Positions 11,794 to 58,963 of a DNA stretch of 64,000 bases are shown here, one piece after another (within the stretch, counting starts at the first letter, position 1; the number at the start of each line of letters is the position of its first letter). Under the pieces are notes generated by a model. That model had not been told where the DNA came from. It did not search any database and worked only from the letters and a program-made list of their open reading frames with translations. Position numbers and translations under genes: made by a program. The DNA is from an uncultured bacterium (lineage in GTDB: Bacteria > Omnitrophota > Omnitrophia > Omnitrophales > Abzuiibacteriaceae). Where the stretch lies: the NCBI GenBank assembly GCA_964387845.1, contig CAYLXA010000002.1, positions 1-64,000 on the forward strand. Direction: 5' to 3'.

Positions 11794-11810
11794 CTAACAG
11801 AGGAATTAAA

Positions 11811-14760: not shown

Positions 14761-14775
14761 CAAAAAGAAAAACAT

Positions 14776-16115: not shown

Positions 16116-16120
16116 TCCTG

Positions 16121-16468: not shown

Positions 16469-16480
16469 GAGATATGCTCC

Positions 16481-17188: not shown

Positions 17189-17253
17189 GCGATTATCTTA
17201 TCGTTGCGCAAGGCCAAGCTCAAGTCAATTCTATCAACGGAAAATTGAACCAC

Positions 17254-29754: not shown

Positions 29755-30121
29755 TAATTCTAAGCACGAAAATCACGGCAGTTGTCAGACAAACCGACAC
29801 GATAGGATTGACCCCGGCCGCATATACGAAAACGTTAAAAAGGACATTGTCAAAAATTTTAAAGAAAGCAGCTTGCTGGATGTAGCGCGAAAAAGTTTTG
29901 CGGCTAAGCGGGATTCTGAAAGAAATTTTTGAATTAAAAATCCATGCGCCGGGCAGCATGACGATCGTCACAATTGCATAGTTTGCCCAGTTCGCCAAAG
30001 GCGTCCATTGATGAATCAGCGCTACGAGCAGTGTTTTGAGCAAGAAAAAAAGAACGGAGCCGCTCGTGATTAACAGCAGTGTTTTTCCACGTGCCTGATC
30101 GGGGGTGTTATGGGGCATCAT
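29720..30121 (-). CDS. GtrA-family small membrane protein
   Basis: 133 aa with four TM helices. Sits in a polyprenyl-P-sugar context. Confidence 0.55.
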   Translation of the reverse strand: MMPHNTPDQARGKTLLLITSGSVLFFLLKTLLVALIHQWTPLANWANYAIVTIVMLPGAWIFNSKISFRIPLSRKTFSRYIQQAAFFKIFDNVLFNVFVYAAGVNPIVSVCLTTAVIFVLRIIAYFKFVFLPD

Positions 30122-32690: not shown

Positions 32691-33395
32691 ATGAAAATCA
32701 CCCTCCTGATTATGACCTGGAACGAAATCGATGGAATGCGTGTGATCATGCCTCAGATCAAGAAAGAGTGGTATGACCAGCTCATCGTGGTTGATGGCGG
32801 GTCGACGGACGGAACAATTGAATACGCAAAAGAATGTGGTTACGAAGTATATGTACAGAAACAAAAAGGGTTTCGGCACGCGTATACGGAAGTGATGCCT
32901 TATGTTAAAGGTGATGTCATTGTTACTTTTAGCCCGGACGGTAATTCAATTGCCGAGCTGATTCCGGAGCTTAATAAAAAAATGCGCGAAGGCTACGATA
33001 TGGTCATCGTTTCGCGGTATTTGGGGAAAGCAAAAAGCAAGGATGATGATTTGGTGACGGGATTTGGCAATCGGTTATTTACAGGAACCGTAAATTTGCT
33101 TCATGGCGGGCATTATACGGATGCCATGGTGATCTTTCGCGCTTACCGGAAACAGATCGTTTACGATTTAGATTTAGACAAAGAAGAAAGCTATTCGTTT
33201 CCGGAAAAATTATTCAACACCAAAATCAGCTGGGAGCCGCTTTTGTCTGTTCGCGCTGCGAAGCGTAAATTAAAGGTCTCAGAAATTCCGGGCGACGAGC
33301 CGCCGCGAATCGGCGGCGAGAGAAAACTACAAGTACTTAAGTGGGGCGCGGCCTACTATTACCAATTCATCAGCGAAGTGTTTTGTTGGCGTTAA
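32691..33395 (+). CDS. GT2 glycosyltransferase
   Basis: ITLLIMTWNE. VVDGGSTDGT. Confidence 0.7.
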   Translation: MKITLLIMTWNEIDGMRVIMPQIKKEWYDQLIVVDGGSTDGTIEYAKECGYEVYVQKQKGFRHAYTEVMPYVKGDVIVTFSPDGNSIAELIPELNKKMREGYDMVIVSRYLGKAKSKDDDLVTGFGNRLFTGTVNLLHGGHYTDAMVIFRAYRKQIVYDLDLDKEESYSFPEKLFNTKISWEPLLSVRAAKRKLKVSEIPGDEPPRIGGERKLQVLKWGAAYYYQFISEVFCWR

Positions 33396-33419
33396 ATTAA
33401 CATTGAAGAAAGGAAAAGA

Positions 33420-34355
33420 ATGGCAAAAATCTTGGTAACCGGAGGAGCAGGGTATATCGGATCTGTTTTAGTGCCTACGCTTCTCAAAGAAAAGCATGAA
33501 GTAACCGTGCTTGATAATCTCATGTACCAGCAATCCTCGCTGTTGGATGTTTGTTACGATTCTAATCTCACGGTAGTGCGCGGAGATGCCCGCGATGAAA
33601 AACTGATCGCAGGTCTGGTCAAAACCGTCGATTATATTTTCCCGCTCGCATGTTTGACGGGAGCGCCCCTTTGCGACAAAGATCCTTTCGCGGCCAAAGA
33701 AGTGAACTTAGATGCTATTTTGTTAATTTTAAAACACCGCAGTAAGAATCAGCGCGTAATCTATCCGACGACCAACAGCGGCTACGGAATCGGCCAAAAA
33801 GGAATCCATTGCGATGAAAAAACGCCGCTCAATCCGATTTCGCTCTATGGCAAATTAAAAGTTGAGGCTGAAAAGGCGATTTTGGATTCCGGAAATGCGG
33901 TTACCTTTCGTCTCGCAACGGCGTTCGGCATCAGTCCGCGGATGCGGCTTGATTTGTTGGTGAACGATTTTGTCTACCGAGCGATTAATGACCGTGCTGT
34001 GATTCTTTTTGAAAGTCATTTCAAGCGTAACTATGTCCACGTTCGCGATATTTCGCGAGCATTTGTGCATGCGGTGAATCATTTCGATAAAATGAAAAAC
34101 GAACCGTACAATGTCGGTTTAAGCGACTGCAATTTAAGCAAAAAAGAATTGTGCGATGAAATCAAAAAGCAGGTTCCCAAATTTTATTATGTTGAGTCGG
34201 CAATTGGCGAAGACCCGGATAAACGCGATTACATCGTGAGCAACGAAAAAATCGAGAAAACAGGGTTCAAAACCGAGCATCCGTTGACGGTTGGGATACG
34301 AGAGCTGATCAAGGGGTATCAAGTTATCAAACGGAGTCAATACGGAAACGTTTAA
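33420..34355 (+). CDS. NAD-dependent nucleotide-sugar epimerase/dehydratase (SDR)
   Basis: ILVTGGAGYIGS Rossmann motif. YGKLK catalytic Yxxx K. Confidence 0.8.
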   Translation: MAKILVTGGAGYIGSVLVPTLLKEKHEVTVLDNLMYQQSSLLDVCYDSNLTVVRGDARDEKLIAGLVKTVDYIFPLACLTGAPLCDKDPFAAKEVNLDAILLILKHRSKNQRVIYPTTNSGYGIGQKGIHCDEKTPLNPISLYGKLKVEAEKAILDSGNAVTFRLATAFGISPRMRLDLLVNDFVYRAINDRAVILFESHFKRNYVHVRDISRAFVHAVNHFDKMKNEPYNVGLSDCNLSKKELCDEIKKQVPKFYYVESAIGEDPDKRDYIVSNEKIEKTGFKTEHPLTVGIRELIKGYQVIKRSQYGNV

Positions 34356-35348
34356 ATGGCGAAATCAACTTCACCAAAAAATAAAGAAATTCTAATCTCG
34401 CTTTATAAAGCGATGCTGAAAATCCGCCGTGCGGAGGAAAAAGTGGCGGAACTTTATCCGTCCGACAAAATCCAAAGCCCGATTCATCTATGCATCGGAC
34501 AGGAGGCTATTTCAGCGGGCGTTTGCCTTGCCATGAAACAGTCAGATCATCTTTATGGAACTTATCGCGGCCACGGTGTTTATTTGGCAAAGGGCGGCAG
34601 CATGAAACAAATGTTTGCCGAGTTGTATGCGAAAGACACGGGTTGTGCGGGCGGTCGCGGCGGCTCCATGCATTTGATTGCGCCCGAAGTTGGCTTGATG
34701 GGATGTTCAGCGATTGTGGCCAGTACGATTCCGCTGGCGGTGGGCGATGCGCTTGCCACAAAGATGCGGAAGAAAAATGATGTAACCGTGACTTTTTTTG
34801 GCGACGGTGCTATCGGCGAAGGCGTTTTCTTTGAAAGTTTGAATTTCGCGGCGTTGAAAAAGCTGCCCGTGGTCTTTGTCTGTGAAAATAACAATTACGC
34901 GGTTCATTCGCGCGTCTCAGACCGCCATAAACAAACCGATCTTTATAAGTACGCGCAGCCTTTCGGAGTTCCGTCTAAACGTTTAGATGGCAATGATGCC
35001 TTGTTAGTTTATGAATCAATGTCGGATGCGATTGCAAAAGCACGGAAGGGCAGCGGTCCTATCTTTATTGAATATATGACCTACCGCATTTATGAACATG
35101 TGGGCCCGTCCAAGGATCATAAAGAGGTGTACCGCGAGACAAAAAAGTTAAAAAATGCCGAAAAAAACGATCCTGTCATTCGATTGGGAAAAGAGCTGCG
35201 TCAAAAATACAAGATTCCTGAATCTGTATTTGCTGAATGGGAATCTGAATTACAGAAAGAGGTCGAGAGCGCGGTCCAGTTCGCAGAAAAAAGTCCGGAG
35301 CCCCCAGCTAGCCGTTTGTACGAGCACATCTATTTGGAGAGATCATGA
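34356..35348 (+). CDS. TPP-dependent dehydrogenase E1 alpha subunit (pyruvate/acetoin dehydrogenase E1 family)
   Basis: HLCIGQEA. YRGHG. GGRGGSMH. TPP motif GDGAIGEG..N. Confidence 0.8.
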   Translation: MAKSTSPKNKEILISLYKAMLKIRRAEEKVAELYPSDKIQSPIHLCIGQEAISAGVCLAMKQSDHLYGTYRGHGVYLAKGGSMKQMFAELYAKDTGCAGGRGGSMHLIAPEVGLMGCSAIVASTIPLAVGDALATKMRKKNDVTVTFFGDGAIGEGVFFESLNFAALKKLPVVFVCENNNYAVHSRVSDRHKQTDLYKYAQPFGVPSKRLDGNDALLVYESMSDAIAKARKGSGPIFIEYMTYRIYEHVGPSKDHKEVYRETKKLKNAEKNDPVIRLGKELRQKYKIPESVFAEWESELQKEVESAVQFAEKSPEPPASRLYEHIYLERS

Positions 35349-36376
35349 GCATTATCAGCTACGGCGAAGCCAATAAACAGGCGCTGACACTGGCGATGGA
35401 ACGCGACCCGAGCGTTTTCTTGATGGGAATCGGTGTAGATGACCACAAGGCCATTTTCGGTAGCGTGCGCGGCATGGTCGAACAGTTCGGCAAAGAGCGT
35501 ATTTTTGATACGCCGATTGCGGAGAGCGGGATGACGGGAATCGCGATTGGCGCCGCGCTAAACGGTATGCGGCCTGTCCATATTCATATCCGCGCCGACT
35601 TTTTATATTTGGCGATGGACCAGCTTTTTAATATTGCAGCGAAGTGGCATGCGATGTTTGGCGGAAAAATGAGCGTTCCGATTGTGATTCGCGCCGTGAT
35701 CGGCCGCAGCTGGGGGCAGGGTGCGCAGCATTCCCAAAGCCCTCAGGCCATGATTGCCCACGTTCCGGGTATTAAATTAGTAATGCCGACCACAGCGTAT
35801 GACGTGAAGGGCTTGCTGCTCAAAGCAATTACCGATCCAAATCCGGTGGTGATGATTGAACATCGCCTGCTTTACGACATTAAAGGAGAGGTGCCGGATG
35901 GTTATTATGAAATTCCATTCGGAAAGGGTGTTGTAAGACGAACCGGAAAGGATGTTACGATTGTCGCAACTTCCTATATGGTTGTTGAGGCATTGAAAGC
36001 TGCCGAATTTTTAACGAATCAGGGAATTGAGGTCGAGATCATTGACCCGCTTACACTGGTTCCGCTGGATGAAGAATTGATTCTGCGATCAGTTCAAAAA
36101 ACCGGCAGAATGCTGGTTGCGGATACCGGCTGGACCAATTGTGGCGTGAGCGCTGAAATTTCCGCGCGTGTTGCAGATCTCGGTTTTTCGTCACTCAAAG
36201 GCCCGATTCGCCGGCTCGGCATGGCGCCCACTGCTTGTCCGGTCAGCAAAGCCCTTGAAAACGCCTTTTATCCAAACGCTAAAACGATTGTCCAGCAAGT
36301 TTGCGAAATGTTGGGCGAGGCGGTTCCAAATGTAGAAGTCCCGCTTTTGGAAAGCAAATTCAAAGGGCCGTTTTAA
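35345..36376 (+). CDS. TPP-dependent dehydrogenase E1 beta subunit (transketolase-like)
   Basis: FGKERIFDTPIAESGMTGIAIGAALNGMRPV typical of E1 beta. ATGA coupling to E1 alpha. Confidence 0.8.
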   Translation: MSIISYGEANKQALTLAMERDPSVFLMGIGVDDHKAIFGSVRGMVEQFGKERIFDTPIAESGMTGIAIGAALNGMRPVHIHIRADFLYLAMDQLFNIAAKWHAMFGGKMSVPIVIRAVIGRSWGQGAQHSQSPQAMIAHVPGIKLVMPTTAYDVKGLLLKAITDPNPVVMIEHRLLYDIKGEVPDGYYEIPFGKGVVRRTGKDVTIVATSYMVVEALKAAEFLTNQGIEVEIIDPLTLVPLDEELILRSVQKTGRMLVADTGWTNCGVSAEISARVADLGFSSLKGPIRRLGMAPTACPVSKALENAFYPNAKTIVQQVCEMLGEAVPNVEVPLLESKFKGPF

Positions 36377-37560
36377 TGATTAAATATCATTTAGCTAAAG
36401 ACACAATTGATGAAAAAGATATTCAGGCACTGATTGAGTGGCTTAAATCCTACCCACGGCTCACGAAAGCAAATCTCACGCTTCAATTTGAAGAGCGGTG
36501 GAGCAAATGGCTTGGAAAGAAATATTCAACCTTCTGCAATTCCGGCTCATCCGCAAATTTGTTGATGTATTACGCGCTGCTAAGTTCCAAAAAGCTTAAA
36601 AATAAAAAAGTCGTCGTACCGACTGTTGGATGGGTGACCACCATTGCGCCTGCCATTCAATTCGGCTTTGAGCCGATCATGTGTGAAGCTGATCCCGACA
36701 CTTTTGGCCTTGATTTGGGTCATCTGGAAAAACTTCTCAAGAAGCACAATCCCGGCACGGTAGTGTTGGTACAGGTGCTCGGCGTTCCTCATAAAATGGA
36801 CGAAATTTTGGCGCTTAAGAAAAAATACGACTTCTATTTGTTGGAAGATGCCTGCGCTTCAATCGGTTCCACATATCACGGTAAAAAAATTGGGCAGTTC
36901 GGTGATATGGCAAGCTTTTCGTTCTATTTTGGACATCAAATGTCAACCATCGAAGGCGGTATGGTATCGACGGACAATAAAGAGTTTCAGGATTTATTAT
37001 TGATGCTTCGAAGCCATGGCTGGAGCAAGGATTTAGACGCAAAGACTCATGATGCGCTCGTTGAGCAATATAAAATTGATGACTTTCATACGCCCTTTGT
37101 TTTTTATGAGCCGGGGTTCAATTTGCGCTCAACCGACCTCAACGCATTTCTGGGGCTTCGGCAATTGGACAAGCTCGATTGGATGATTTCGCGGCGTGAT
37201 GAAAATCATAAGCTCTATTATAAACTCTTGGCAAATCAGTTTTACGCTCAGAAATATGCGGATCCAAAAGCAAATGTTTCAAGTATCTCATTTGGTGCTT
37301 TGGCCGCTGATCCGGAAGAGCGGCGCAAGGTCGTGAAGGCTTTGGTGCAGAACGGGATTGAAACCCGGATTTTTTCGGCAGGAAATCTAGGTTTGCATCC
37401 GTTTTGGTATAACCGATACGGAAAAGCGAGCTTTCCGGTTGCCGATAAAGTACACCATTGCGGATTTTTCCTTCCAAATCATCCGTCGCTTGCGACGAAA
37501 GATGTTGAATTTGTGGCGCAGGTAACCTTGGATGCGGTATGCACGGGAAAATCCTCGTAA
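36376..37560 (+). CDS. DegT/DnrJ-family PLP enzyme of the 3-dehydratase type (ColD/E1-like, His replaces the PLP lysine)
   Basis: FSFYFGHQMSTIEGG has His where aminotransferases have Lys, as in ColD/AscC. TAATG overlap start at 36376. The ORF-track 5' extension was rejected. Confidence 0.65.
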   Translation: MIKYHLAKDTIDEKDIQALIEWLKSYPRLTKANLTLQFEERWSKWLGKKYSTFCNSGSSANLLMYYALLSSKKLKNKKVVVPTVGWVTTIAPAIQFGFEPIMCEADPDTFGLDLGHLEKLLKKHNPGTVVLVQVLGVPHKMDEILALKKKYDFYLLEDACASIGSTYHGKKIGQFGDMASFSFYFGHQMSTIEGGMVSTDNKEFQDLLLMLRSHGWSKDLDAKTHDALVEQYKIDDFHTPFVFYEPGFNLRSTDLNAFLGLRQLDKLDWMISRRDENHKLYYKLLANQFYAQKYADPKANVSSISFGALAADPEERRKVVKALVQNGIETRIFSAGNLGLHPFWYNRYGKASFPVADKVHHCGFFLPNHPSLATKDVEFVAQVTLDAVCTGKSS

Positions 37561-38468
37561 CCGGCGGCACAGGTCTTTTGGGATCAGCGCTTCAAAAGCA
37601 GTGTCCGGATGCGGTTTATGTTGGAAGTAAAGATTATGACTTGAGACGGTTTGATGAGGCTGAGAGGATGTTTGGCGAAATAAAACCAACCCGCGTGATT
37701 CATCTTGCGGCCAATGTGGGTGGGGTGAAGAAAAACGCGGAGCAAAATGCCACACTTTTCTCGGACAATGTTTTAATCAACACCAATGTGATTGAGGCTG
37801 CAATTCAAGGCGGTGTTAAGCGGTTGATTTCAATTTTATCCAGCTGTTGTTTTAAAATTTATCCGGACAAGCCGTCAACAGAGAGCGATTTGCATGAAGG
37901 TGCGCCGTTTGCCGGCAATTTGGGCTATGGTTATGCAAAGCGAATGCTGGACATCCATAGCCGCTTAGCGTGGGAGCAGCATCGGCTGCAGTTTTCATCG
38001 ATCACTCCAGCGACAATGTATGGGCTTAACGATAACTGGGATCTAGAAAGCGGACATGTGGTGGCTGCGTTAATCCGCCGGACGTTTATAGCGAAAGAAA
38101 GGGGCGAGCCGTTGACTGTTTGGGGAAGTGGAAATGCTGTCCGCCAATTTGTCTTAGCAGATGATGTCGCGAGGCTGCTTTTAGAGGAGATTGATACGTT
38201 TGATGGCCCCGACAATATGATCGTAGCACCGGATTCGGGTGTCTCGATACGCGATTTAACAAGCATGATCGCGGAGCTGATGAATTTTAAAGGAGAAATT
38301 ATTTTTGACCAGTCGAAACCGGAGGGACAATTAAAGAGAGTGTTGATCAGTGAGAAATTTAAAAAGCGGTATCCCGAATTTAGCTTTACACCGCTTCGCA
38401 GCGGCTTAAAAATGACCATTGATTGGTTTCTCAAAAACTATAAAACAGCAAGGGTTTTGAAGGTGTGA
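37539..38468 (+). CDS. NAD(P)-dependent nucleotide-sugar epimerase/reductase, GDP-L-fucose synthase (Fcl/ColC)-like
   Basis: ILVTGGTGLLGSAL. SSCCFKIYP. YGYAK. Follows the ColD-like gene. Confidence 0.7.
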   Translation: MHGKILVTGGTGLLGSALQKQCPDAVYVGSKDYDLRRFDEAERMFGEIKPTRVIHLAANVGGVKKNAEQNATLFSDNVLINTNVIEAAIQGGVKRLISILSSCCFKIYPDKPSTESDLHEGAPFAGNLGYGYAKRMLDIHSRLAWEQHRLQFSSITPATMYGLNDNWDLESGHVVAALIRRTFIAKERGEPLTVWGSGNAVRQFVLADDVARLLLEEIDTFDGPDNMIVAPDSGVSIRDLTSMIAELMNFKGEIIFDQSKPEGQLKRVLISEKFKKRYPEFSFTPLRSGLKMTIDWFLKNYKTARVLKV

Positions 38469-38469
38469 C

Positions 38470-39516
38470 ATGATTATTAGCCGAACCCCTTTTCGTGTTT
38501 CTTTTTTAGGCGGCGGAACCGATTACCCCGGTTGGTACCGTGAGCATGGCGGAGCCGTGTTGGCGACAACCATTGATAAGTACTGCTATATTACTTGCCG
38601 CTATCTACCCCCATTTTTTGAGCATAAAAGCCGCATCATGTATTCCAAAATCGAGTGCGTTCAGTCCAATAAAGACATCGAACATCCCTCTGTGCGGGAA
38701 ACTTTGAAATATATGAATATCCAAGAGGGGATTGAGATTCATCACGACGGCGATTTGCCTGCCCGCGCCGGTTTGGGATCAAGCTCTGCTTTTACAGTGG
38801 GATTATTGAACGCGCTTTATGGCCTTAAGCGTAAAATGTCGTCTAAAGAAGATTTGGCAAAGGAAGCGATTCATGTGGAAAGAGATCTCCTGAGCGAGAA
38901 TGTGGGATCTCAAGATCAGGTACAGTCGTCGTTTGGCGGTTTGAATCACATTGAATTCCTCAAAAACGGACAATTTAACGTTTTTCCGATTGTTTTGAAG
39001 CATGAGCGCCTTCAAAGTTTTCAAGATCATCTTTTGCTGTATTTTACGGGTTTCTCGCGTTTTGCTTCAGACATTGCAAAAGAGCAAATTGATTCGATTG
39101 CGAAAAAACAAAATGAGCTTAAAGCGATGGGGCAAATGGTTGGTGAAGGCCTCAAGATTCTTACGGGTGACGCAAGCTTGTTGGAATTTGGAAAATTGCT
39201 GCATGAAAGCTGGACATTGAAGCGGAATTTGACTAACCGGATTTCAACACCTGCCATTGATCAAATTTATGAAGAAGCGCGGAGGGCAGGCGCCGTGGGC
39301 GGAAAGCTGCTCGGGGCCGGCGGGGGCGGTTTCGTTCTTTTGCTGGTTGAGCCCGGTAAACAGCAAAAAGTAAAGGATGTGCTGCAAAAATTATTGCTGG
39401 TCCCGTTTCAATTCGAAAACACGGGAACGCAGGTTGTTTTTTACCGCCCTCCCAAGGAAAGTACCGAAATGAGTTGGTTTAAGTTCCAAAAGGAGCGGGA
39501 AGCTTCGCAAAAGTGA
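38470..39516 (+). CDS. GHMP sugar kinase (HddA-like D-glycero-D-manno-heptose 7-phosphate kinase family)
   Basis: PFRVSFLGGGTDYP N-terminus. GHMP motif PARAGLGSSSA. C-terminal GAGGGGF. Confidence 0.7.
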   Translation: MIISRTPFRVSFLGGGTDYPGWYREHGGAVLATTIDKYCYITCRYLPPFFEHKSRIMYSKIECVQSNKDIEHPSVRETLKYMNIQEGIEIHHDGDLPARAGLGSSSAFTVGLLNALYGLKRKMSSKEDLAKEAIHVERDLLSENVGSQDQVQSSFGGLNHIEFLKNGQFNVFPIVLKHERLQSFQDHLLLYFTGFSRFASDIAKEQIDSIAKKQNELKAMGQMVGEGLKILTGDASLLEFGKLLHESWTLKRNLTNRISTPAIDQIYEEARRAGAVGGKLLGAGGGGFVLLLVEPGKQQKVKDVLQKLLLVPFQFENTGTQVVFYRPPKESTEMSWFKFQKEREASQK

Positions 39517-40238
39517 ACAAACGCCTGACCGATCCAGCACACATTGACGTGTTAATTATTTGCGGAGGGCTGGGGACGCGCCTCCGTTCTGTCGAGCCCG
39601 ATGCGCCCAAAGGCATGGTTGTTATTGAAGGAAAACCGTTTCTTGAAATTCTGATTGATCATTTGCGTCATTCCGGTTTTCGGCGTTTTATTCTCTGCAC
39701 CGGTTACGGCGCCAAACGTTTTCGGCAGCATTTTGAAGCGGCCAAACAGTCAGAAATTATATTTTCCGAAGAAGTAAAGCCGCTGGGCACGGCCGGAGCT
39801 GTCAAGCAAGCCGAAAAACTCATAAGCAGCGATCAGCAGTTGGTGTTAAATGGCGATTCTTTGTGCTTGGCGGATTGGCAGGAGCTATTACGCTTTCATG
39901 CATCGCATCAGGGGTTGGCAACGCTTTTGGTAACTCAGGACCGAGAGCGAACGGATGTGGGCGGAATCAAGTTTGATCACAACTTCGGCGTAACGCAATT
40001 TAAAGAAAAGGAAAAAGAATCGACCCCATATATTAATGCGGGTATTTATATTTTTGAGCGCCGGTTATTGGAATTGATTCCGAAAAATCAAAAAATTTCT
40101 TTGGAGGAACAAATTTTTCCAAAGCTGAACGAAACCCAACTGTTTGCTTGCGTATCATTAGCAACTGTGTATGATATTGGAACGCCCGAACGTTTAGAGA
40201 AATTTAAACAACTTTATTCTGCAGGAAAATTCAATTAA
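39513..40238 (+). CDS. Sugar-1-phosphate nucleotidyltransferase (HddC/mannose-1-P guanylyltransferase-like)
   Basis: ICGGLGTRLR nucleotidyltransferase motif. About 240 aa. Coupled to the kinase. Confidence 0.7.
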   Translation: MNKRLTDPAHIDVLIICGGLGTRLRSVEPDAPKGMVVIEGKPFLEILIDHLRHSGFRRFILCTGYGAKRFRQHFEAAKQSEIIFSEEVKPLGTAGAVKQAEKLISSDQQLVLNGDSLCLADWQELLRFHASHQGLATLLVTQDRERTDVGGIKFDHNFGVTQFKEKEKESTPYINAGIYIFERRLLELIPKNQKISLEEQIFPKLNETQLFACVSLATVYDIGTPERLEKFKQLYSAGKFN

Positions 40239-40243
40239 ACGAT

Positions 40244-41794
40244 ATGGTTAATACAAAAAATAAACTTGATGTCTTGCTCATTAATCCTGGCAATTTGATC
40301 CAGGTTTACCAAACGCTGGGACTCAATATTTCTGCTATCGAGCCGCCGGTTTGGTCCGGGTTGATGGCCACTTTCGTTCGGCGCAAAGGCTGTTCCGTTC
40401 AAATTCTGGATGCTAACGCCGAGAATCTGACCCCTGCTCAAACTGCGCAAAAAGCGCTTGAGTTGAAGCCGCTTCTGATCGCTGTTGTTGTTTACGGACA
40501 TCAACCGTCGGCTTCGACGCAAATTATGCCGGCGGCAAGTTCAATTTGCTCCGCGATTAAGGCGCAAGACCCAAGCCAAAAGGTGTTTTTGGTTGGCGGG
40601 CATGTCTCGGCGCTGCCTGATCGGACGCTGAGCGAGGAAAGTGCAGATTTTGTGTCGAGCGGCGAGGGGCCGCACACGCTTTTAGAGTTAATTGAGGCGC
40701 TGAAAGCCGGCGGCTCCGAAAATTTAAAGAAGGTTCGCGGATTACTTTATAAAGAAAACGGGAAAATTCAGTTCAACGCACCGGCACCACTCGTCAAAAA
40801 CTTGGATGAAGAAATGCCTGAAATGGCCTGGGATCTTTTGCCTATGGAAAAATACCGGGCGCACAACTGGCATTGTTTCGGTCATTTAGATAAACGCGCG
40901 CCTTATGCTTCGTTTTATACCACGCTCGGGTGTCCGTATCACTGCACTTTTTGTTGTATTCAGTCGCCTTACAAAACCGGAGAAAAAGAGTCTGGTTTGA
41001 AGGAGGAGATTAACAGCTATCGCTTCTGGAATCCCAAAACGGTTGTCGATCAAATCGGAAAATTAGTCAACGAATACGGAGTCCGCAATATTAAGATCGC
41101 AGACGAGATGTTTGTTCTCAATGCGCGTCATGTATTTGGTATTTGCGATTTGATCATTGAGCGCGGTTATGATTTGAATATTTGGGCGTATGCACGCATT
41201 GACACAATTAAGGACAATATGCTGGACAAATTAAAGCGTGCGGGTGTGAACTGGCTCGCGTTTGGCATCGAGTCGGGTAGCGAGCGTGTCCGAGATAATG
41301 TGGACAAAGCGTTTGACCAAGAGGACATTCGCAAAGTAATTCAAAAAGTGAAAGATGCTGGTATTAACATCATCGGAAATTATATCTTCGGGCTACCGGA
41401 AGATGATATGAATTCAATGAAAGCCACTCTGGATTTAGCGCTCGAACTTAATTGCGAATTTACCAACTTTTATTGCGCGATGGCGTATCCCGGGTCTCCT
41501 TTGTATCAGCAGGCTATCCGTGAAAAATGGGCATTACCAAAAGCCTGGAGCGGTTATTCTCAGCATTCGGTCGATATGCTTCCGCTTGCCACAAAACACC
41601 TCCCGGCTTCTGACGTTATTCGGTTTAGAGACCAGGCATTTGAGGTTTATTTTAAATCACCTAAATATTTAGAGATGGTGCGCCAAAAATTCGGCGAAGA
41701 AACTTTAAAACATATCCAGGCAATGCTTTCACATCAGCTTAAACGACAATTCGTTTCTTCAAGCACGTCAAAAACCTCATCGCAAAAGAGTTGA
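40244..41794 (+). CDS. Cobalamin-binding radical SAM enzyme (class B, probable sugar C-methyltransferase)
   Basis: N-terminal B12-binding-like domain. Radical SAM cysteine cluster GCPYHCTFCC. Confidence 0.7.
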   Translation: MVNTKNKLDVLLINPGNLIQVYQTLGLNISAIEPPVWSGLMATFVRRKGCSVQILDANAENLTPAQTAQKALELKPLLIAVVVYGHQPSASTQIMPAASSICSAIKAQDPSQKVFLVGGHVSALPDRTLSEESADFVSSGEGPHTLLELIEALKAGGSENLKKVRGLLYKENGKIQFNAPAPLVKNLDEEMPEMAWDLLPMEKYRAHNWHCFGHLDKRAPYASFYTTLGCPYHCTFCCIQSPYKTGEKESGLKEEINSYRFWNPKTVVDQIGKLVNEYGVRNIKIADEMFVLNARHVFGICDLIIERGYDLNIWAYARIDTIKDNMLDKLKRAGVNWLAFGIESGSERVRDNVDKAFDQEDIRKVIQKVKDAGINIIGNYIFGLPEDDMNSMKATLDLALELNCEFTNFYCAMAYPGSPLYQQAIREKWALPKAWSGYSQHSVDMLPLATKHLPASDVIRFRDQAFEVYFKSPKYLEMVRQKFGEETLKHIQAMLSHQLKRQFVSSSTSKTSSQKS

Positions 41795-42978
41795 CTCAGT
41801 CGCGATCAACGCAGAAGCAATGGATAGTTATCGGCGGCGGCATTATTGGCACCGCGGTTGCCCTGGCTCTTGCTAAGCGCAAAGCTGGCTCAATCTTAAT
41901 TCTAGAGAAAGAATCTTCGCTCGGGCTTCATCAAAGCGGTCGCAACAGCGGTGTCATTCATTCCGGGATTAATCAAAAACCCGGAAGTTTGAAAGCAAAA
42001 ATGTGCGTTGAGGGCAGCCGGCGCTTGCGAGAATATTGCAGACAGCGGCGGATTGTGATGAATGAATGTGGGACTTTAGTGATTGCGCGTCATGCCGAAG
42101 AGCTGGCAACCCTAGACCGTCTTTTAAAAATGGGTGTCGAGTGCGGCGTTGAGGGGTTGATGTTAATCGGCCGCGATGAATTGATTGAGCGGGAACCGAT
42201 TGCCAAAGGCGATAGTGCTCTTCTGTCTCCCTCAGGCGCAACCGTTGATTCTGAAATGCTCCTCAAATCTCTTGCGCAAGATGCGCGCGAGGTCGGTGTT
42301 GAGTATAAAATGGTCCATCGCGTTTTAAAAATCGAAGGAAATACGGTCTATACCAACCAAGGGAGTTTCAACGCCGAATACATCATTAATTGTGCGGGGC
42401 TTTATGCAGATGAAATTGCGCATATGATGAACGCAGGGAGAGGTTATCGGATTATTCCATTTCGCGGCGAGTATATGGAAGTCAAAAATTGCGATGTGAA
42501 ATCAATGGTTTATCAGGCTCCTGATCTCCGGTTTCCGTTTTTGAGCATTCATTTAACCCGGGAAACGGACGGAAGAGTGCTTGCCGGGCCTAGCGCAGTT
42601 TTGGCGTTTGGCAGGGAAGCATATGAGAAGGAATGGGATTGGCGTGAAATGGGCCGCATGTTTACTAGTATGCAATTTTTACGGATGGTTATCAGACCAG
42701 AGTTTGTGCAGCTAGCTTCCGAGAATTTGAAAACATCGCTATCAGCAAATAGTTTTTTGGAGCAGATTCAGTCTCTGGTTGCAGGTGTAACGCAAGAACA
42801 GATTGTGCCGCATCGGGCCGGAATCCGAGCTCAGATGGTGGATCAAAGCGGTAAATTGGTTGATGATATTTTGGTGGAACATCAACCGTCGGCAACGCAT
42901 GTGCTGAATGCAGTATCTCCCGGAATGACGTGCAGTCTGGCATTTGCAGACTATTTAGCGGGGCAAATTTTAAATTAG
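41791..42978 (+). CDS. FAD-dependent oxidoreductase (DAO/LhgO family)
   Basis: IVIGGGIIGTAVALAL dinucleotide motif. Coupled to the radical SAM gene. Confidence 0.7.
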   Translation: MTQSRSTQKQWIVIGGGIIGTAVALALAKRKAGSILILEKESSLGLHQSGRNSGVIHSGINQKPGSLKAKMCVEGSRRLREYCRQRRIVMNECGTLVIARHAEELATLDRLLKMGVECGVEGLMLIGRDELIEREPIAKGDSALLSPSGATVDSEMLLKSLAQDAREVGVEYKMVHRVLKIEGNTVYTNQGSFNAEYIINCAGLYADEIAHMMNAGRGYRIIPFRGEYMEVKNCDVKSMVYQAPDLRFPFLSIHLTRETDGRVLAGPSAVLAFGREAYEKEWDWREMGRMFTSMQFLRMVIRPEFVQLASENLKTSLSANSFLEQIQSLVAGVTQEQIVPHRAGIRAQMVDQSGKLVDDILVEHQPSATHVLNAVSPGMTCSLAFADYLAGQILN

Positions 42979-42993
42979 TGAGATAGTTAACGA

Positions 42994-43968
42994 GTGGCTT
43001 GTATGAAAAAAATTTTAATCTGCGGCGGAACTGGTTTTATCGGCAGGAATTTGGTTGAGTATTTTGTCAAAAAACCAGATTTTGAAGTTTACGCAACTTG
43101 TTACAAGCGTCGTTCTCCCTTAATTCCAAAGGCTAAATTTAAGCGTATTGATTTAACAAATGTTGTGCAAGTTCAAGAAATTGTGAAGGGGATGGATGTT
43201 GTGGTTCAAGCCGCTGCCACAACCTCCGGCGTAAAGGATACGATTGAGGCGCCTTATGTGCACGTTACAGATAACGCCGTAATGAACTCCTTGATTTTTC
43301 GAGCGTGTTTCGAGCAAAAGGTGAAACACGTGATCTTTTTAAGCTGTACCGTGATGTATCCGAATCAGGAGGCGCCAGTTTCGGAAGAAGATATGAATTA
43401 TCAAATTACGGATAATTATTTTGGTGTCGGTTGGACAAAAGTTTACCTCGAGAAAATGAGCCAATTTTATTCGCGAATCGGAAGTGCTAAATATACCGCG
43501 ATTCGGCATTCCAATATTTACGGCCCTTATGATAAGTATGATCTTGAAAAATCACACGTTTTTGGCGCAACGGTTGCGAAAGTTGAAACTGCCAAGGACG
43601 GCAAAGTTGTGGTCTGGGGCACGGGCGCCCAAGAGCGCGATCTTTTATATGTGGATGACCTGTCCCGGTTTATTGATTTGGCAATTGAAAAGCAAACTGA
43701 AAAGTTTGAGCTGGTTAATGTTGGTTACGGAAAAAGCATTTCAATTGCTAATCTGGTCCAGTTGATTATTGACCGCTCCAAAAAGAATTTAAAGATTGAG
43801 TATGATCATTTAAAGCCTTCGGTTAACTTCAAGTTGGTTCTGAATATCGACCGCGCAAAGCGCATTTTTGGCTGGGAGCCGCAGGTGCCGCTTGAAGAAG
43901 GAATTGAAAGGAGTCTTGCGTGGTATCGAAAACATATTCAACCAATGTCTGCCGAAAAGATTAAATGA
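42994..43968 (+). CDS. NAD-dependent nucleotide-sugar epimerase/dehydratase (SDR)
   Basis: ILICGGTGFIGRNL. YxxxK in YLEKMSQ. Confidence 0.75.
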   Translation: MACMKKILICGGTGFIGRNLVEYFVKKPDFEVYATCYKRRSPLIPKAKFKRIDLTNVVQVQEIVKGMDVVVQAAATTSGVKDTIEAPYVHVTDNAVMNSLIFRACFEQKVKHVIFLSCTVMYPNQEAPVSEEDMNYQITDNYFGVGWTKVYLEKMSQFYSRIGSAKYTAIRHSNIYGPYDKYDLEKSHVFGATVAKVETAKDGKVVVWGTGAQERDLLYVDDLSRFIDLAIEKQTEKFELVNVGYGKSISIANLVQLIIDRSKKNLKIEYDHLKPSVNFKLVLNIDRAKRIFGWEPQVPLEEGIERSLAWYRKHIQPMSAEKIK

Positions 43969-46019
43969 AAAGCAAATTAATTTGCGCTGCCGTATTAGTG
44001 GCGCTGATTGTGATTTCATTTTACACCTACCGCTCCGGTGTCATTTCCGTGCCTCGCTCCGATCACTATGGGTTTATGGCGGAGAGGGAATACGCAGTTT
44101 CGGATACCGAGTTTTTGTTGAAGCAGTTGGTCTATAACCGGACCCGCGTCATCGCAAAGGGTGATTCTTTTTTGTTCAGGCCCGGAATGACCGGCACGCT
44201 CGCGCTTTTGGATATTTTTTTTCGGCATAATTTGTATGCGCTTGGCGCTTTCAGTATCCTCGCGCATGCTTTGACGGCTTTTTCATTGTTCTTATTGCTG
44301 AGTTTGTTTTTAAGGCGCTCTTTTGCGTTTATCCTATCCGTTGTATTTGCCACGCATCTGGCAGGTTTTGAAATGGTTTTTTGGCGCCATATCAGTCCTT
44401 ACATGTTTTGCCTGGTTTTTGTAGGATTGGCATTGTACGCGCTTGGCCGCTGGCTTCAGCCGCCCGAAAATCGAAATTGGCTTTTATTATTTTCATTCTG
44501 CCTTTTTTTATCTTCACTATTTCACGAAGTTGTTTTGCCGGCGATGGTTATCTTCTGTCTTTTATTTTTAGTTCTGCATTTTCAAAATCAATCAACGAAT
44601 CCATCTTATTTTAAATCATTGTCAATCGCGTGCCTGGTCCCGCTGGCTGCTAATTTGCTGCTCAACGTCGCTGGCCGGATCGCTTTTAGCAGCCAGGCCA
44701 ACCTGTTATTGAGTGATGCGGCGCAACCGGCAAGCGTTGCTTACGCCTCAAAATTTTTAAGCCACGCGGTTTACGTCGGGGGCCTGATTATCACTGCCTT
44801 TTTGGCGCCGAGCATCATTCGTTTCTCATTTATTAATTTGGATTTTCGGGCGGAGTGGGACTTTCTCAAAATTCCAGCGCCTGTTTTTTACACCGCCGGT
44901 TTTATTTTTCTTACATTGATCGCAGGGGCGTTAATTTATCTATATATTTTCAGAAAAAAGCTCGGTCAGCGACAGCTTTTTCCGATTTTTGCATTCGCGG
45001 GAATATTTTTGATTGTCACTTTTTTGGGACTAACGGTCGGGAGGGCCATTCCGCGCTCAATCGGTTATTTGAAAAACTCCACCTATTATTTCTATCTAAC
45101 CAATTACGCCCTTACAATCATCGTTGCTATGGGCTTGAGAAAAATCAGCAGCTTACCGTATAAAAATTTAAAAATCGGATTAGTGTTTTTCCTGCTCTGT
45201 GTTGCCGGTTATCAGATTAAAAGCGGTATTGCGGGAATCGAAAAGGCAATCAATGCTCGAGGTGATTACGATAAACAAATCGCTTCCAAAACACTCCGGG
45301 TTTGGTCAGAATTAAGCAAGCATCCGGAATATTGCTATGGTGGGACCGGGGCCGAAAGAGTTTCAAGCTTTGTGCCCAATGTTCTGCTGTACCGAAGGTC
45401 ATGCAATGCTTTCCCGGACAAAATCCCGCTCTATTTGCTCGAAAACGAAAAACGCGAACTTTGGTTTATGCAGTTGATTCCTGAGCAGATTGATCAGCAG
45501 GCCTATCGTTATGGGCAGATCAATAATGAGGGGCAAGCCGAGTTTTCCGCTCAATCAACCGATAACCAGCTCAGTTTTAGCGGTTTTTCTCTTAGCAATG
45601 CCGTCCATCATCCTATTTATTACGGCGCCCGGCTTCATGGGGGATTTGTCGGAGGTTTGGTATTTAACTATCACGACCCCGCCAATTTTTCAATCTTAGT
45701 GGCAAATGAACGTTACACTTATGTGCAATTTAACGAGAATGGAAACCCCTCGGAACCGTCGTATGTGGCGCAGCAGATTTTAGATCCGATCGCTTTTGAT
45801 TTGTCGATTCGGAGAATCGGCGGCAGGTATGTTGTATTCTATAACCGGACTTTGCTTGCAGTGATCAATGATGCTGTTTCCGAGGGACGAGTGGGGCTTT
45901 ATCGGAAGCCCCGTCATTCAGCAGGCGAGTATTTTACCGACGTGGTCTTGATTGATGCTTCAGAGGCCAAACAATCGCAGATGGGTGCTTTTGAACCTGT
46001 TTTTCAATTTCAATTTTAG
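43965..46019 (+). CDS. Polytopic membrane protein with a ~280-aa C-terminal soluble domain (glycan-assembly protein, family unassigned)
   Basis: About 11 TM helices followed by a soluble domain. Lies in the glycan locus. Confidence 0.4.
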   Translation: MKSKLICAAVLVALIVISFYTYRSGVISVPRSDHYGFMAEREYAVSDTEFLLKQLVYNRTRVIAKGDSFLFRPGMTGTLALLDIFFRHNLYALGAFSILAHALTAFSLFLLLSLFLRRSFAFILSVVFATHLAGFEMVFWRHISPYMFCLVFVGLALYALGRWLQPPENRNWLLLFSFCLFLSSLFHEVVLPAMVIFCLLFLVLHFQNQSTNPSYFKSLSIACLVPLAANLLLNVAGRIAFSSQANLLLSDAAQPASVAYASKFLSHAVYVGGLIITAFLAPSIIRFSFINLDFRAEWDFLKIPAPVFYTAGFIFLTLIAGALIYLYIFRKKLGQRQLFPIFAFAGIFLIVTFLGLTVGRAIPRSIGYLKNSTYYFYLTNYALTIIVAMGLRKISSLPYKNLKIGLVFFLLCVAGYQIKSGIAGIEKAINARGDYDKQIASKTLRVWSELSKHPEYCYGGTGAERVSSFVPNVLLYRRSCNAFPDKIPLYLLENEKRELWFMQLIPEQIDQQAYRYGQINNEGQAEFSAQSTDNQLSFSGFSLSNAVHHPIYYGARLHGGFVGGLVFNYHDPANFSILVANERYTYVQFNENGNPSEPSYVAQQILDPIAFDLSIRRIGGRYVVFYNRTLLAVINDAVSEGRVGLYRKPRHSAGEYFTDVVLIDASEAKQSQMGAFEPVFQFQF

Positions 46020-46034
46020 TTATGCGGTAGTGAG

Positions 46035-47963
46035 GTGTGTGTGATGATTTTGTTTCCGGTTTTATTATTTGCGGCTTTGGTTCTGATTTTAAACGGCCAT
46101 CCGCAATTTCGAGTCAATGAACGCGATGATTGGCGTTATCAAACGGGTCTTGCATTTGTTGTGACGGGCGTCATCGCGGTTGCTGCGATTGAAGTGTTGA
46201 GCGTTTTTTCTGCGCTTACACAAAAAACCGTTGGCGTGACATGGGGAGCGCTGCTGTGCGTTGCTCTGTCTGTTTGGTTTTTTGGTTATCGAAAAACTCA
46301 GATCCTGCCTTCGATTTCCGGTTTTTCAGGTTTATTCTTAGGGCTTTTGTCCGGGATTTTTTTCCTCGTAATTATTACGAGCGTTGTTGCTCTTTTGGCT
46401 CCGCCCAATACATGGGATTCGCTGACGTATCACATGAGCCGGGTCGCGCATTGGGTCCAAAATAGAAGTGTCGGACACTATCCAACCAACATTTTAAGGC
46501 AATTGTATCATGCGCCAGGAGCCGAATTTATGATCTTGCAAGCCCAGCTCTTGAGCGGAGGCGACCGCTTTGCCAATATGATTCAATGGAGTTTTTATAT
46601 CGGCTGTGTTCTCACCAGTTCTTTGCTGACAAAGCAATTTGGATTTGACCGGTGGGCACAGCTGCTGACCGCGGTTTTTGCGTCAACGCTCCCGATGGCG
46701 ATTTTACAGGCTTCAAGCACGCAAAACGATCTGGCAGCCTCGTTCTGGCTTCTTGCAGCAGTTGTGTTTCTTCTGAGGCTGCAGAATCAATTTAATTGGA
46801 CAGATGCGTGCGGTGCCGGTGCCGGTATTGGGCTTGCGTTTCTGACAAAATCACTATCCTATGTTTACATTATTCCGTTCATAGCGTGGTTTGCTTGGGC
46901 TTGCGTCAGAAACAGGCAGTGGGGAAAGTTGTCAAAAACTGCGGCGTTAATTGCTGCGCTGGTTATCGTGATTAATCTGGGCCACTGGTCGCGCAATTTC
47001 GTACTTTTCCATCATCCGCTAGGGCCAATAAAAACAATAGATTTAACCAACGAGAAATTCGGCGTCCGGCCCGTGTTGTCTAACATAATTCGGGGCGCTG
47101 CCTCGCACGCGAGCTTTCCGATCATTGGTATTAACCACGAGCTGACCAAATGGATTTATGCGTTCCACCGTTCGCTTGGCATGGATGCCAATGATCCGAA
47201 GACAACCTATGATCCTAATTTTGGAAAATTTCAAATCCGTCCGCTTCACGCCCATGAAGATTCAGCGAGCAACCCCATTCATTTTTGGCTGATTGTGATT
47301 TGCGGGATTATTGCGCTGCGCAGGCGCGAGACTCGAAAAGAGCCAAAATTTATATTTTATCTTGCATCGGTCATTGCTGCCTTCCTGCTAATTTGCATTA
47401 TTTTCAAGTGGCAAGTGTGGATCAGCCGTTTGCAGCTGCCTCTTTTCTTTTTTTGGGCACCTGTGGCGGGTTCAGTGCTGTCTTTGATGAAAGCAAAAAG
47501 CGTATCTGGCGCAGTTGCCGTTTTTTTGCTGGTCAGCTCACTTTATTCAGCTTTCTTTAATTTTTCTCGGAGTTTTTTTAAGTGGCCTTTTGTTGACAAT
47601 ATGCCGCCCACTGTTTTTGAAGCAGGACGTGACATGCTGTATATGAATAACGGGGCTAACATTGTGAAGCTTTCATATTTACTTGCAACAAAACATATTG
47701 AATCGAAGCGCTATAAGAATGTCGGACTTATTGTTCATGAGGATGACTGGGAATATCCGTACTGGGCGATACTGCAAGCCAATCGGAATGCGATCCGGAT
47801 TGAACATATAGAAGTGGCGAATATATCGAGTAAAATAAAAAGAAAGCCTTTTCGGCCGGATGTTGTTATTGCATCAAAGCCAACGGATGGGCAAATCCGA
47901 CGCTATGAAGCCGAGTATGGTTCCGGCGAACAGATGGGAATTTTGTGGGTTTTTGGCCGGTAG
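46035..47963 (+). CDS. Polytopic membrane protein, GT-C-like, with a C-terminal soluble domain
   Basis: About 12 TM helices. Early loop PPNTWDSLTYH with acidic residues. C-terminal ~180-aa soluble region. Confidence 0.4.
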   Translation: MCVMILFPVLLFAALVLILNGHPQFRVNERDDWRYQTGLAFVVTGVIAVAAIEVLSVFSALTQKTVGVTWGALLCVALSVWFFGYRKTQILPSISGFSGLFLGLLSGIFFLVIITSVVALLAPPNTWDSLTYHMSRVAHWVQNRSVGHYPTNILRQLYHAPGAEFMILQAQLLSGGDRFANMIQWSFYIGCVLTSSLLTKQFGFDRWAQLLTAVFASTLPMAILQASSTQNDLAASFWLLAAVVFLLRLQNQFNWTDACGAGAGIGLAFLTKSLSYVYIIPFIAWFAWACVRNRQWGKLSKTAALIAALVIVINLGHWSRNFVLFHHPLGPIKTIDLTNEKFGVRPVLSNIIRGAASHASFPIIGINHELTKWIYAFHRSLGMDANDPKTTYDPNFGKFQIRPLHAHEDSASNPIHFWLIVICGIIALRRRETRKEPKFIFYLASVIAAFLLICIIFKWQVWISRLQLPLFFFWAPVAGSVLSLMKAKSVSGAVAVFLLVSSLYSAFFNFSRSFFKWPFVDNMPPTVFEAGRDMLYMNNGANIVKLSYLLATKHIESKRYKNVGLIVHEDDWEYPYWAILQANRNAIRIEHIEVANISSKIKRKPFRPDVVIASKPTDGQIRRYEAEYGSGEQMGILWVFGR

Positions 47964-58956: not shown

Positions 58957-58963
58957 CTAGGGA

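Follow-up and report, generated by a model that had tools for sequence, protein, structure and literature searches.

A widespread class B radical SAM family in a conserved nucleotide-sugar cassette: a possible route to carbocyclic nonoses and a clustered, predicted L-2-hydroxyglutarate oxidase

The closest described relative of the locus reported here is the capsular GDP-heptose pathway of Campylobacter jejuni, with its C4-dehydrogenase Cj1427, its HS:5 C3-dehydratase and C4-reductases of the Cj1428 type. Cj1427 oxidizes GDP-heptose at C4, and its tightly bound NADH is re-oxidized by 2-oxoglutarate, which yields L-2-hydroxyglutarate (L-2-HG); the HS:5 dehydratase converts the Cj1427 product into GDP-3-deoxy-4-keto-heptose (PMC10680097). 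On other 4-keto sugars, a C-4 acetyl branch is added from pyruvate by AviB1/B2 and Pau11/12, pairs of proteins that resemble the E1 component of pyruvate dehydrogenase (PDH) (PMC4753412), and YerE makes a comparable C-4 acetyl addition for yersiniose (PMC9306805). HpnJ, in turn, is genetically required to form the five-membered carbocycle of the hopanoid cyclitol ether from a sugar, glucosamine (PMC9092360). Here we analyze a stretch of 64,000 nucleotides from an uncultured Omnitrophota bacterium (contig CAYLXA010000002.1 of assembly GCA_964387845.1, positions 1 to 64,000; hereafter the window), in which the gene of a class B radical S-adenosylmethionine enzyme (rSAM) overlaps the gene of an FAD-dependent flavoprotein (Table 1). 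The best overall explanation of this pair, to which we give a probability of about 0.4, is that the two genes lie in one operon and serve separate steps, rSAM as the cyclase of a heptose cassette and the flavoprotein as the enzyme that recycles L-2-HG.

The operon shares with the C. jejuni pathway an activation of the HddA/HddC type, a Cj1427-like short-chain dehydrogenase/reductase (SDR1), a 3-dehydratase of the ColD type from the DegT family with histidine in place of the catalytic lysine (DegT), and a second SDR that resembles GDP-L-fucose synthase (GFS; SDR2). The C. jejuni pathway differs in that it has neither PDH-E1-like subunits dependent on thiamine diphosphate (ThDP), nor a B12 radical SAM enzyme, nor a clustered L-2-hydroxyglutarate oxidase (LhgO); it uses separate cupin epimerases and ends in simple heptose stereoisomers or deoxyheptoses. 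In the literature searched we found no prior description of the cassette, of L-2-HG with heptose or of caryose biosynthesis, no report of LhgO paired with a sugar-nucleotide dehydrogenase, and no system that combines heptose steps with an E1-type ThDP enzyme and a B12 radical SAM enzyme, with the addition of LhgO in some lineages. The early heptose steps are known; what is new is a widespread class B family in a nucleotide-sugar pathway and a new use of LhgO.

The rSAM protein carries a B12-binding domain (PF02310, residues 25-149, 51.6 bits against a cutoff of 32.1, E = 1e-13, profile positions 4-120 of 121) followed by a Radical_SAM domain (PF04055, residues 226-399, 67.2 bits against a cutoff of 29.5, E = 2.5e-18), and its open reading frame (ORF; 40244-41794) contains TLGCPYHCTFCCIQSP, with the cluster motif CPYHCTFC. 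The cluster cysteines (C230-x3-C234-x2-C237) and a GG motif (G118, G119) are invariant across 37 homologues, and the DxHxxG motif is missing, as is usual in class B. An AlphaFold model (AF2; pLDDT 81.5, pTM 0.85) adopts the class B fold, and a Foldseek search of the PDB with this model recovered AprD4, TsrM, MgmA (9ccb), CysS, TokK and OxsB (E values from 5e-22 to 8e-16) at identities of at most 19%. AprD4 ranks first by sequence (E = 1.4e-15) as well as by fold (E = 5e-22; TM-score 0.75, normalized to the AprD4 chain). TsrM is matched by sequence only at E = 4.5e-4, and TokK, CysS and OxsB were recovered by the fold search only. From its domains and its model, rSAM is classed as a class B (B12-binding-domain) radical SAM enzyme, as a first-pass annotation of this DNA had proposed, and is predicted to use cobalamin. 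The AprD4 match shows that the fold alone is no guarantee of the latter, since AprD4, to our knowledge, functions without cobalamin.

No curated NCBIfam family includes the protein, all scores being under cutoff. The highest belong to HpnJ (TIGR03471, 168.6 bits against a cutoff of 577.6) and BchE (TIGR02026, 141.5 against 481.35), both with nearly full-length profile alignments, and are followed at 77-115 bits by ApyD, the ladderane-lipid radical SAM protein, PhpK, MgmA and AprD4. Among the characterized methylase families the protein falls below the cutoff for PhpK (93 bits against 600), MgmA (90 against 360), HpnR (63 against 650), TsrM (45.5 against 500) and KedN5 (40 against 700), GenK and Fom3 lying outside the libraries searched, and its score for the Sden_1168 P-methylase (88 bits) is likewise sub-threshold. 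Hopanoid and chlorophyll genes were not found near rSAM, hpn genes are absent from the window and from 90 related loci, and rSAM shares only 27% identity with a true bchE carried by a Skermanella plasmid.

This family is far from rare. More than 8000 database clusters matched rSAM, the top 120 being 64-83% identical to the window protein, and the family as a whole spans at least 12 phyla at 58-83% identity, contrary to the first-pass annotation, which had described the modification as rare tailoring. A genome search gave 164 matches, of which 80 loci were kept; they come from Planctomycetota, Omnitrophota, Cyanobacteria, Desulfobacterota/'delta', Binatia, Chloroflexota, Nitrospirota, Poribacteria, Acidobacteriota, Verrucomicrobiota, Myxococcota and Bacteroidota, and a sister subfamily of rSAM occurs in Alphaproteobacteria. 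The occurrence of homologues of the window genes was tallied over 83 loci (Table 1), where gaps fall mostly on short contigs. The genes are frequently found in a fixed order (GHMP kinase, SDR2, E1-alpha, E1-beta, DegT, rSAM), and one Omnitrophota locus (L012) has a gene order identical to that of the window. Two loci that apparently hold DegT and rSAM only (L047, L054) are cassettes broken up by unrelated genes. Cultured carriers include Solidesulfovibrio magneticus RS-1 (on pDMC1) and, on plasmids, Azospirillum lipoferum 4B and A. argentinense Az39. By synteny, rSAM marks, as its signature gene, a cassette of eight genes present in at least 12 phyla. This very strong conservation of gene neighborhood bears out the nucleotide-sugar setting that the first-pass annotation had suggested, and no orthology to a non-sugar pathway was found.

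Three of these loci hold further genes of related kinds. In L012, a stand-alone B12-binding-domain ORF (13948-14781) and a second, unrelated B12 radical SAM gene (18356-19873) lie downstream of the cassette and of a YfhO gene. On plasmid p6 of A. lipoferum 4B (L096), the cassette is split. Its SDR1-E1alpha-E1beta-DegT half is flanked by genes for an MTA/5'-deoxyadenosine phosphorylase and MtnA (16931-19196), and its rSAM half is found about 20 kb off on p6; a possible function of the phosphorylase and MtnA is the salvage of 5'-deoxyadenosine derived from rSAM. On pAB510f of Azospirillum sp. B510 (L097, 6004-12927), a Cj1427-like SDR (60% identical), the cassette kinase and a NUDIX gene occur without rSAM or DegT, together with a split transketolase, an aldo/keto reductase and an O-methyltransferase, and the locus looks like a different variant of heptose remodeling.

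The other cassette enzymes indicate the substrate. The nucleotidyltransferase is HddC/ManC-like, and its product should therefore be a GDP-sugar. Homologues of GmhA or GmhB lie inside the cassette at 11-13 loci, and also in S. magneticus RS-1; together with the HddA/HddC-like genes, they make GDP-heptose very probably the starting sugar of the cassette, as judged from sequence. SDR1 aligns without gaps over 308 residues, at 55% identity (E = 1e-114), with PDB entries 6vo6/6vo8. We take 6vo6 to be C. jejuni Cj1427, which the depositor's molecule name fits, and by analogy SDR1 would consume 2-oxoglutarate and release L-2-HG. The nearest PDB relatives of DegT are ColD/WbdK (E = 1e-52), and its GHQ aligns with SHH of ColD (His188 by our count). 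Histidine takes the place of the pyridoxal phosphate (PLP) lysine in 67 of 67 cassettes, divergent types (24-37% identity) included; because of this, and because ColD is the nearest relative, we read DegT as a 3-dehydratase dependent on pyridoxamine phosphate (PMP). An aminotransferase that makes an amino sugar was considered and ruled out by the same replacement. The DegT gene probably starts at ATG 36376, which overlaps the E1-beta stop by 1 nt (TAATG) and is favored over the mechanical TTG 36301 by the ColD alignment and by relatives. SDR2 retains the catalytic S-x-C, YxxxK and His residues in its alignment with human GFS, and a ColD-like enzyme paired with a GFS-like one follows, by analogy, the logic of colitose.

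The E1-alpha and E1-beta subunits have no E2 or E3 gene beside them in the operon and are likened to AviB1/AviB2, as a candidate carboligase for a two-carbon unit. As in the AviB1/AviB2, Pau11/Pau12 and YerE (a ThDP flavoprotein) systems, an E1 pair without E2/E3 stands near a 3-dehydratase that makes a 3-deoxy-4-keto nucleoside diphosphate (NDP) sugar, the acceptor type of yersiniose. Those systems, likened here by description and not by sequence, differ in acting on hexose or pentose NDP-sugars for antibiotics or O-antigens and in having no radical SAM step.

In the pathway that we propose, the HddA-like kinase and the HddC-like transferase would lead to GDP-D-glycero-D-manno-heptose, SDR1 would oxidize its C4, and the ColD-like DegT would take off the 3-hydroxyl to give GDP-3-deoxy-4-keto-heptose; these substrates are likely, given the sequence matches above. 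The PDH-E1-like enzyme would then transfer a two-carbon acyl unit from pyruvate, most simply onto the ketone at C4, the site used by AviB1/B2 and YerE, a step for which the analogy gives slightly better than even odds. SDR2 would invert C5. Finally, rSAM would take a hydrogen from C7, and the C7 radical would attack the C8 carbonyl of the 4-C-acetyl branch to close a cyclopentane made of C4-C5-C6-C7-C8. Such a closure would be redox-neutral, 4-C-acetyl-3-deoxyheptose and caryose being isomeric (C9H16O7 -> C9H16O7), and its product, a 4,8-cyclo-3,9-dideoxynonose, would have the skeleton of caryose. The short family 2 glycosyltransferase (GT2) would load the GDP-sugar onto polyprenyl phosphate, from which a GT-C glycosyltransferase (PMT_2 here, YfhO in L012) would put the sugar on a surface acceptor.

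Caryose was isolated in 1996. Its structure is described, and its biosynthesis is given as 'currently unknown' (PMC9092360). We tentatively favor a radical C7-C8 ring closure to a caryose-type carbocyclic nonose over methylation because the features of this sugar can be matched one by one with the conserved enzymes. The nine carbons would be the seven of the heptose plus a C2 unit; the 3-deoxy position would be owed to the ColD-like dehydratase, the C4 tertiary alcohol bonded to C8 to ThDP acyl-anion addition to the 4-ketone, the 9-deoxy position to the methyl group of pyruvate, the inverted C5 to a GFS-type 5-epimerase and the C7-C8 bond to the radical step. The D-ido prefix, which covers C2, C4, C5 and C6, would differ from D-glycero-D-manno at C5 only, which fits a 5-epimerase of the GFS type. 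The C7-C8 bond joins two oxygen-bearing carbons, as in a pinacol; this appears to lie beyond simple polar chemistry and would need a radical. The mapping draws on nomenclature and carbon book-keeping. That the cassette as a whole is a route to caryose-type carbocyclic nonoses, in which rSAM catalyzes a new, redox-neutral, pinacol-like radical cyclization of 4-C-acetyl-3-deoxyheptose and, as a second new feature, a clustered LhgO drives a 2-oxoglutarate-dependent sugar dehydrogenase, is a bolder proposal, and one that we consider uncertain enough to call doubtful.

The second gene of the pair is easier to place. The flavoprotein matches the NCBIfam equivalog NF008726 (L-2-hydroxyglutarate oxidase) with 359.7 bits against a cutoff of 299, over profile positions 3-387 of 389, and the DAO domain PF01266 with 183.8 bits (E = 8.6e-54); like the two domain matches of rSAM, these go well past what chance would give. 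In the structure of Drosophila L2HGDH (dmL2HGDH), the substrate is contacted by S88, H92, Y289, L299, H302 and R393 (PMC10726252). All six contacts and the GxGxxG FAD motif are kept in the window flavoprotein and in its homologues from L014, L084, L086, L088-L090 and RS-1. We assign it on sequence as an L-2-hydroxyglutarate oxidase/dehydrogenase, with the activity predicted. Because SDR1 is the sole evident source of L-2-HG in the operon, we read the flavoprotein as the recycler of SDR1, and it is quite likely, from sequence and by analogy, that it regenerates 2-oxoglutarate from the L-2-HG that SDR1 would release. Recycling by LhgO would pull the C4 oxidation forward and prevent a build-up of L-2-HG. 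A comparable coupling, of SerA with D-2-hydroxyglutarate dehydrogenase, was reportedly described by Zhang et al. in PNAS in 2017. There too a 2-oxoglutarate-reducing dehydrogenase is joined by an FAD enzyme that re-oxidizes hydroxyglutarate; in the window, the enantiomer would be L, the partner would be a sugar-nucleotide dehydrogenase, and the gene lies inside a glycan operon.

LhgO is found with the cassette in several arrangements. It stands directly after rSAM in L084, where the flavoprotein is 75% identical to that of the window (rSAM of L084/85: 80%), and in L086, where it is 65% identical (rSAM: 70%). A Nitrospirota locus (L014) has a 43%-identical LhgO one gene away from rSAM, and on pDMC1 of S. 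magneticus RS-1 an lhgO annotated by PGAP, 31% identical, lies 12 kb from rSAM, between cassette genes and a SIS/GmhA-like gene. Judged by sequence, these are three unrelated LhgO lineages that appear to have joined the cassette independently. They did so at three positions, which argues that the cassette needs LhgO activity rather than its adjacency to rSAM.

Omnitrophota-type sugar clusters that lack a Cj1427-like SDR within 10 kb contain LhgO-type genes as well. Three of these genes (L088 10001-11206, L089 10001-11167, L090 10001-11176) are 56-64% identical to the window's and keep all L-2-HG contacts. The gene adjoins unrelated B12 radical SAM genes and YfhO in L088, it adjoins a B12 radical SAM gene, an SDR and a methyltransferase/GT2 in L089, and in L090 it overlaps an SDR located after RmlC and RmlD. 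From these contexts, other 'ping-pong' SDRs that use 2-oxoglutarate may exist.

Several points weigh against our preferred reading. The resemblance to HpnJ and BchE, the nearest curated families and both linked to the formation of a five-membered carbocycle, is weak, with scores far under the cutoffs. BchE, the anaerobic Mg-protoporphyrin cyclase, is itself a B12-domain radical SAM enzyme that makes such a ring; unlike HpnJ and BchE, rSAM would act on a heptose derivative linked to a nucleotide or a lipid. The top structural match of the rSAM model is AprD4, a diol dehydratase. Most characterized class B radical SAM enzymes are methyltransferases, so the prior favors methylation. A carbon radical adds reversibly to a ketone, and the step would need a trap; GFS-like enzymes normally also reduce C4, which would compete with the ThDP addition there. 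GmhA and GmhB are not in the window, and we know of no cassette-carrying organism that makes caryose. A search seeded with the Azospirillum rSAM homologue returned only alphaproteobacterial names and no Burkholderia or Trinickia name. As for recycling, no LhgO gene lies within 10 kb of rSAM at 79 of the 80 genome loci, and the LhgO-type genes of L088-L090 are without a nearby Cj1427-like SDR. The reaction could instead be a cobalamin-dependent C-methylation at an unactivated sp3 carbon in the 3-deoxy, C2-branched heptose that GDP carries, on the acetyl or hydroxyethyl branch or at C7 (by analogy with TokK, CysS, Fom3 and GenK), which would give a C10 branched sugar. We rate this as a strong competitor, only slightly less probable than the ring closure: the B12-binding domain is clear, methylation is generally the default among class B enzymes, TsrM, MgmA, CysS and TokK are among the structural neighbors, and PhpK, MgmA and the Sden_1168 P-methylase all score below threshold at 88-93 bits; yet the non-methylating HpnJ and BchE outscore every NCBIfam methylase family, none of these scores being above cutoff, the predicted product matches no known bacterial sugar, and the known longer-branched sugars, erwiniose and caryophyllose, owe their extra carbons to ThDP donors rather than to methylation (PMC9306805). 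The class B C-methyltransferases GenK, GenD1, Fom3, TokK, CysS, TsrM and MgmA resemble rSAM in domain architecture and fold, at identities of at most 19% (GenK and Fom3 outside the set compared). An origin of the terminal methyl group of erwiniose and caryophyllose in rSAM methylation was ruled out, as YerE-type ThDP enzymes with long 2-oxoacid donors account for it (PMC9306805).

A non-methylating reaction other than the proposed closure appears improbable. It could be an AprD4-like dehydration of a C6-C7 diol, an epimerization, or a ring contraction like those of HpnJ or OxsB; in the case of dehydration, the E1 alpha/beta ThDP enzyme would then extend the new carbonyl in a DXS-like reaction. 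AprD4, the 1,2-diol dehydratase of apramycin, works with the reductase AprD3. It acts on a sugar ring (PDB 6fd2; 18% identical to rSAM) and is the best PDB match by both sequence and fold, and if SDR2, like ColC, reduces C4, the carbonyl that the E1 enzyme requires would have to lie at another position. Against this, the rSAM family keeps a well-scoring B12 domain while AprD4 does without cobalamin, the NCBIfam AprD4 model reaches 77 bits (cutoff 500) over the rSAM core only (residues 191-430), and AprD4 may rank first merely through the absence of solved HpnJ and BchE structures. The first-pass annotation had, finally, described rSAM as coupled to the flavoprotein. In a true functional partnership, the flavoprotein would oxidize what rSAM makes or serve as its source or sink of electrons. 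The overlap is real: the TGA stop of rSAM and the TTG start of the flavoprotein, the sole in-frame start 5' of its GxGxxG motif, share 4 nt (TTGA), L084 has the same 4-nt overlap, and LhgO-type genes stand beside other, unrelated B12 radical SAM genes in L088 and L089. It is not distinctive within the operon, however, because every gene junction from 32691 to 47963 is similarly tight (-22 to +24 nt) and overlaps are the rule. The flavoprotein is missing at nearly all rSAM loci and is placed apart from rSAM in RS-1 and L014, and it keeps every residue in contact with the two carboxylates of L-2-HG, which argues against a sugar substrate. A functional partnership is thus very improbable, and the flavoprotein as a conserved partner of rSAM is ruled out by the synteny tally and the RS-1 layout. 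The first-pass reading is partly supported as a whole: the enzyme class, the pathway and the overlap stand, the functional coupling and the rarity do not, and C-methylation is no more than possible. We also dropped the idea that the flavoprotein and SDR3 form an epimerase pair like DprE1/DprE2 on a polyprenyl-phosphate sugar, since every L-2-HG carboxylate-binding residue is kept.

The interest of the cassette lies in a very large, highly conserved enzyme family with no characterized member, the substrate of which becomes predictable from its fixed sugar-nucleotide context. As this substrate can be prepared with known enzymes of the C. jejuni type, rSAM is directly testable. Were rSAM the ring-forming step, the origin of caryose would be solved and B12 radical SAM chemistry would gain a new reaction; carbocyclic sugars would then be frequent constituents of the cell surface in Planctomycetota, Cyanobacteria, Omnitrophota, Desulfobacterota, Azospirillum and others, beyond Burkholderia caryophylli. 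The link between LhgO and the Cj1427-like enzyme would account for the fate of the L-2-HG made by a 'ping-pong' heptose dehydrogenase and would provide a rationale for the annotation of L-2-hydroxyglutarate oxidases within glycan clusters.

Table 1. Genes of the rSAM locus in the window, with the number of loci, among the 83 tallied, that hold a homologue.
Coordinates	Strand	Product	Features	Loci with homologue
30965..32575	-	Divergent polytopic membrane protein, candidate glycan-handling component	536 aa, ~8 hydrophobic segments, no Pfam match	
32691..33395	+	Short GT2, polyprenyl-phosphate-sugar-synthase type (AglJ/DPM/PpgS-like)	No transmembrane (TM) segment	17/83
33420..34355	+	SDR1, Cj1427-like, putative GDP-heptose C4-dehydrogenase	Similarity to PDB 6vo6/6vo8	42/83
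34356..35348	+	E1-alpha, PDH-E1-alpha-like ThDP subunit	PF00676 250 bits; TIGR03182 329.6 bits, under cutoff 393.85	55/83
35345..36376	+	E1-beta, PDH-E1-beta-like (Transket_pyr + Transketolase_C)	Pfam domains	63/83
36376..37560	+	DegT, ColD-like, putative PMP-dependent C3-dehydratase	SFYFGHQMSTIEGG motif, His for PLP lysine	64/83
37539..38468	+	SDR2, GFS/ColC-like epimerase-reductase	E = 1e-70 to human GFS	46/83
38470..39516	+	GHMP kinase, HddA / heptose-7-phosphate kinase type	Profile matches	48/83
39513..40238	+	Sugar-1-phosphate nucleotidyltransferase, HddC/ManC-like	Profile matches	33/83
40244..41794	+	rSAM, class B radical SAM, cassette signature gene	ATG start, 516 aa; B12-binding and Radical_SAM domains	
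41791..42978	+	Flavoprotein, predicted FAD-dependent L-2-hydroxyglutarate oxidase/dehydrogenase (LhgO/L2HGDH family)	TTG start, 395 aa; NF008726 and DAO PF01266	2/83, one being the window's own contig
42994..43968	+	SDR3, NAD-dependent epimerase/dehydratase, outside the conserved cassette	Kept in L084 (77%) and L086 (68%)	
43965..46019	+	Polytopic membrane protein	684 aa, >=10 hydrophobic segments, no Pfam match	
46035..47963	+	PMT_2 / ArnT-like GT-C glycosyltransferase	Candidate transferase from polyprenyl phosphate to an extracytoplasmic acceptor	

The genes of Table 1 on the forward strand belong to a long, tightly packed operon that extends from 32691 to ~53954. Scans for promoters and terminators within it gave no signal exceeding chance, and an Rfam scan of the window found no cobalamin riboswitch and no other Rfam family.

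Several of the remaining operon genes point to delivery of the sugar, by a lipid carrier, onto a surface acceptor, as suggested by the families of the short GT2 and of the GT-C proteins. The GT2 is 52-78% identical across about 20 cassette loci, and membrane proteins of the GT-C type accompany the cassette as PMT_2 in the window, YfhO in L012 and a PMT-type protein in RS-1. Short GT2 and GT-C membrane proteins are likewise the parts of three-component polyprenyl-phosphate glycosylation (ArnC/ArnT, GtrB/Gtr*, CsbB/YfhO), from which the window differs in that its GT2 is without TM segments and no flippase was identified. The membrane protein encoded at 43965..46019 has homologues in L084, L086 and, beside a YfhO-type GT-C gene, L088; the divergent one at 30965..32575 has positional counterparts in L084 (50% identity) and L086 (45%). 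Further along the same operon, between two GT2 genes, a gene at 49777-53001 (+) encodes a protein of 1074 aa in which a spermine/spermidine-synthase-like domain (553-712) is combined with a long array of tetratricopeptide repeats at the C terminus.

Other parts of the window also hold genes that look like glycan tailoring, namely those for a FrhB/FdhB-like protein paired with a polysaccharide pyruvyl transferase (27327-29754, -) and for a 2-oxoglutarate-Fe(II) oxygenase (30108-30968, -) just upstream of the divergent membrane protein. A cluster resembling a type IV pilus or type II secretion system (T2SS; 8393-21139) comprises a T2SSE ATPase with a C-terminal PilZ domain, T2SSF, a PilM-PilN fusion and a T2SSK-like protein. 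Inside it lies the gene of an STT3/PglB-type oligosaccharyltransferase (17176-19800, +; 874 aa), which hints at N-glycosylation of pilins or secreted proteins. Adjoining genes at 57802-60415 (-), one saccharopine-dehydrogenase-like and one Orn/DAP-decarboxylase-like, are consistent with a carboxy(nor)spermidine polyamine pathway.

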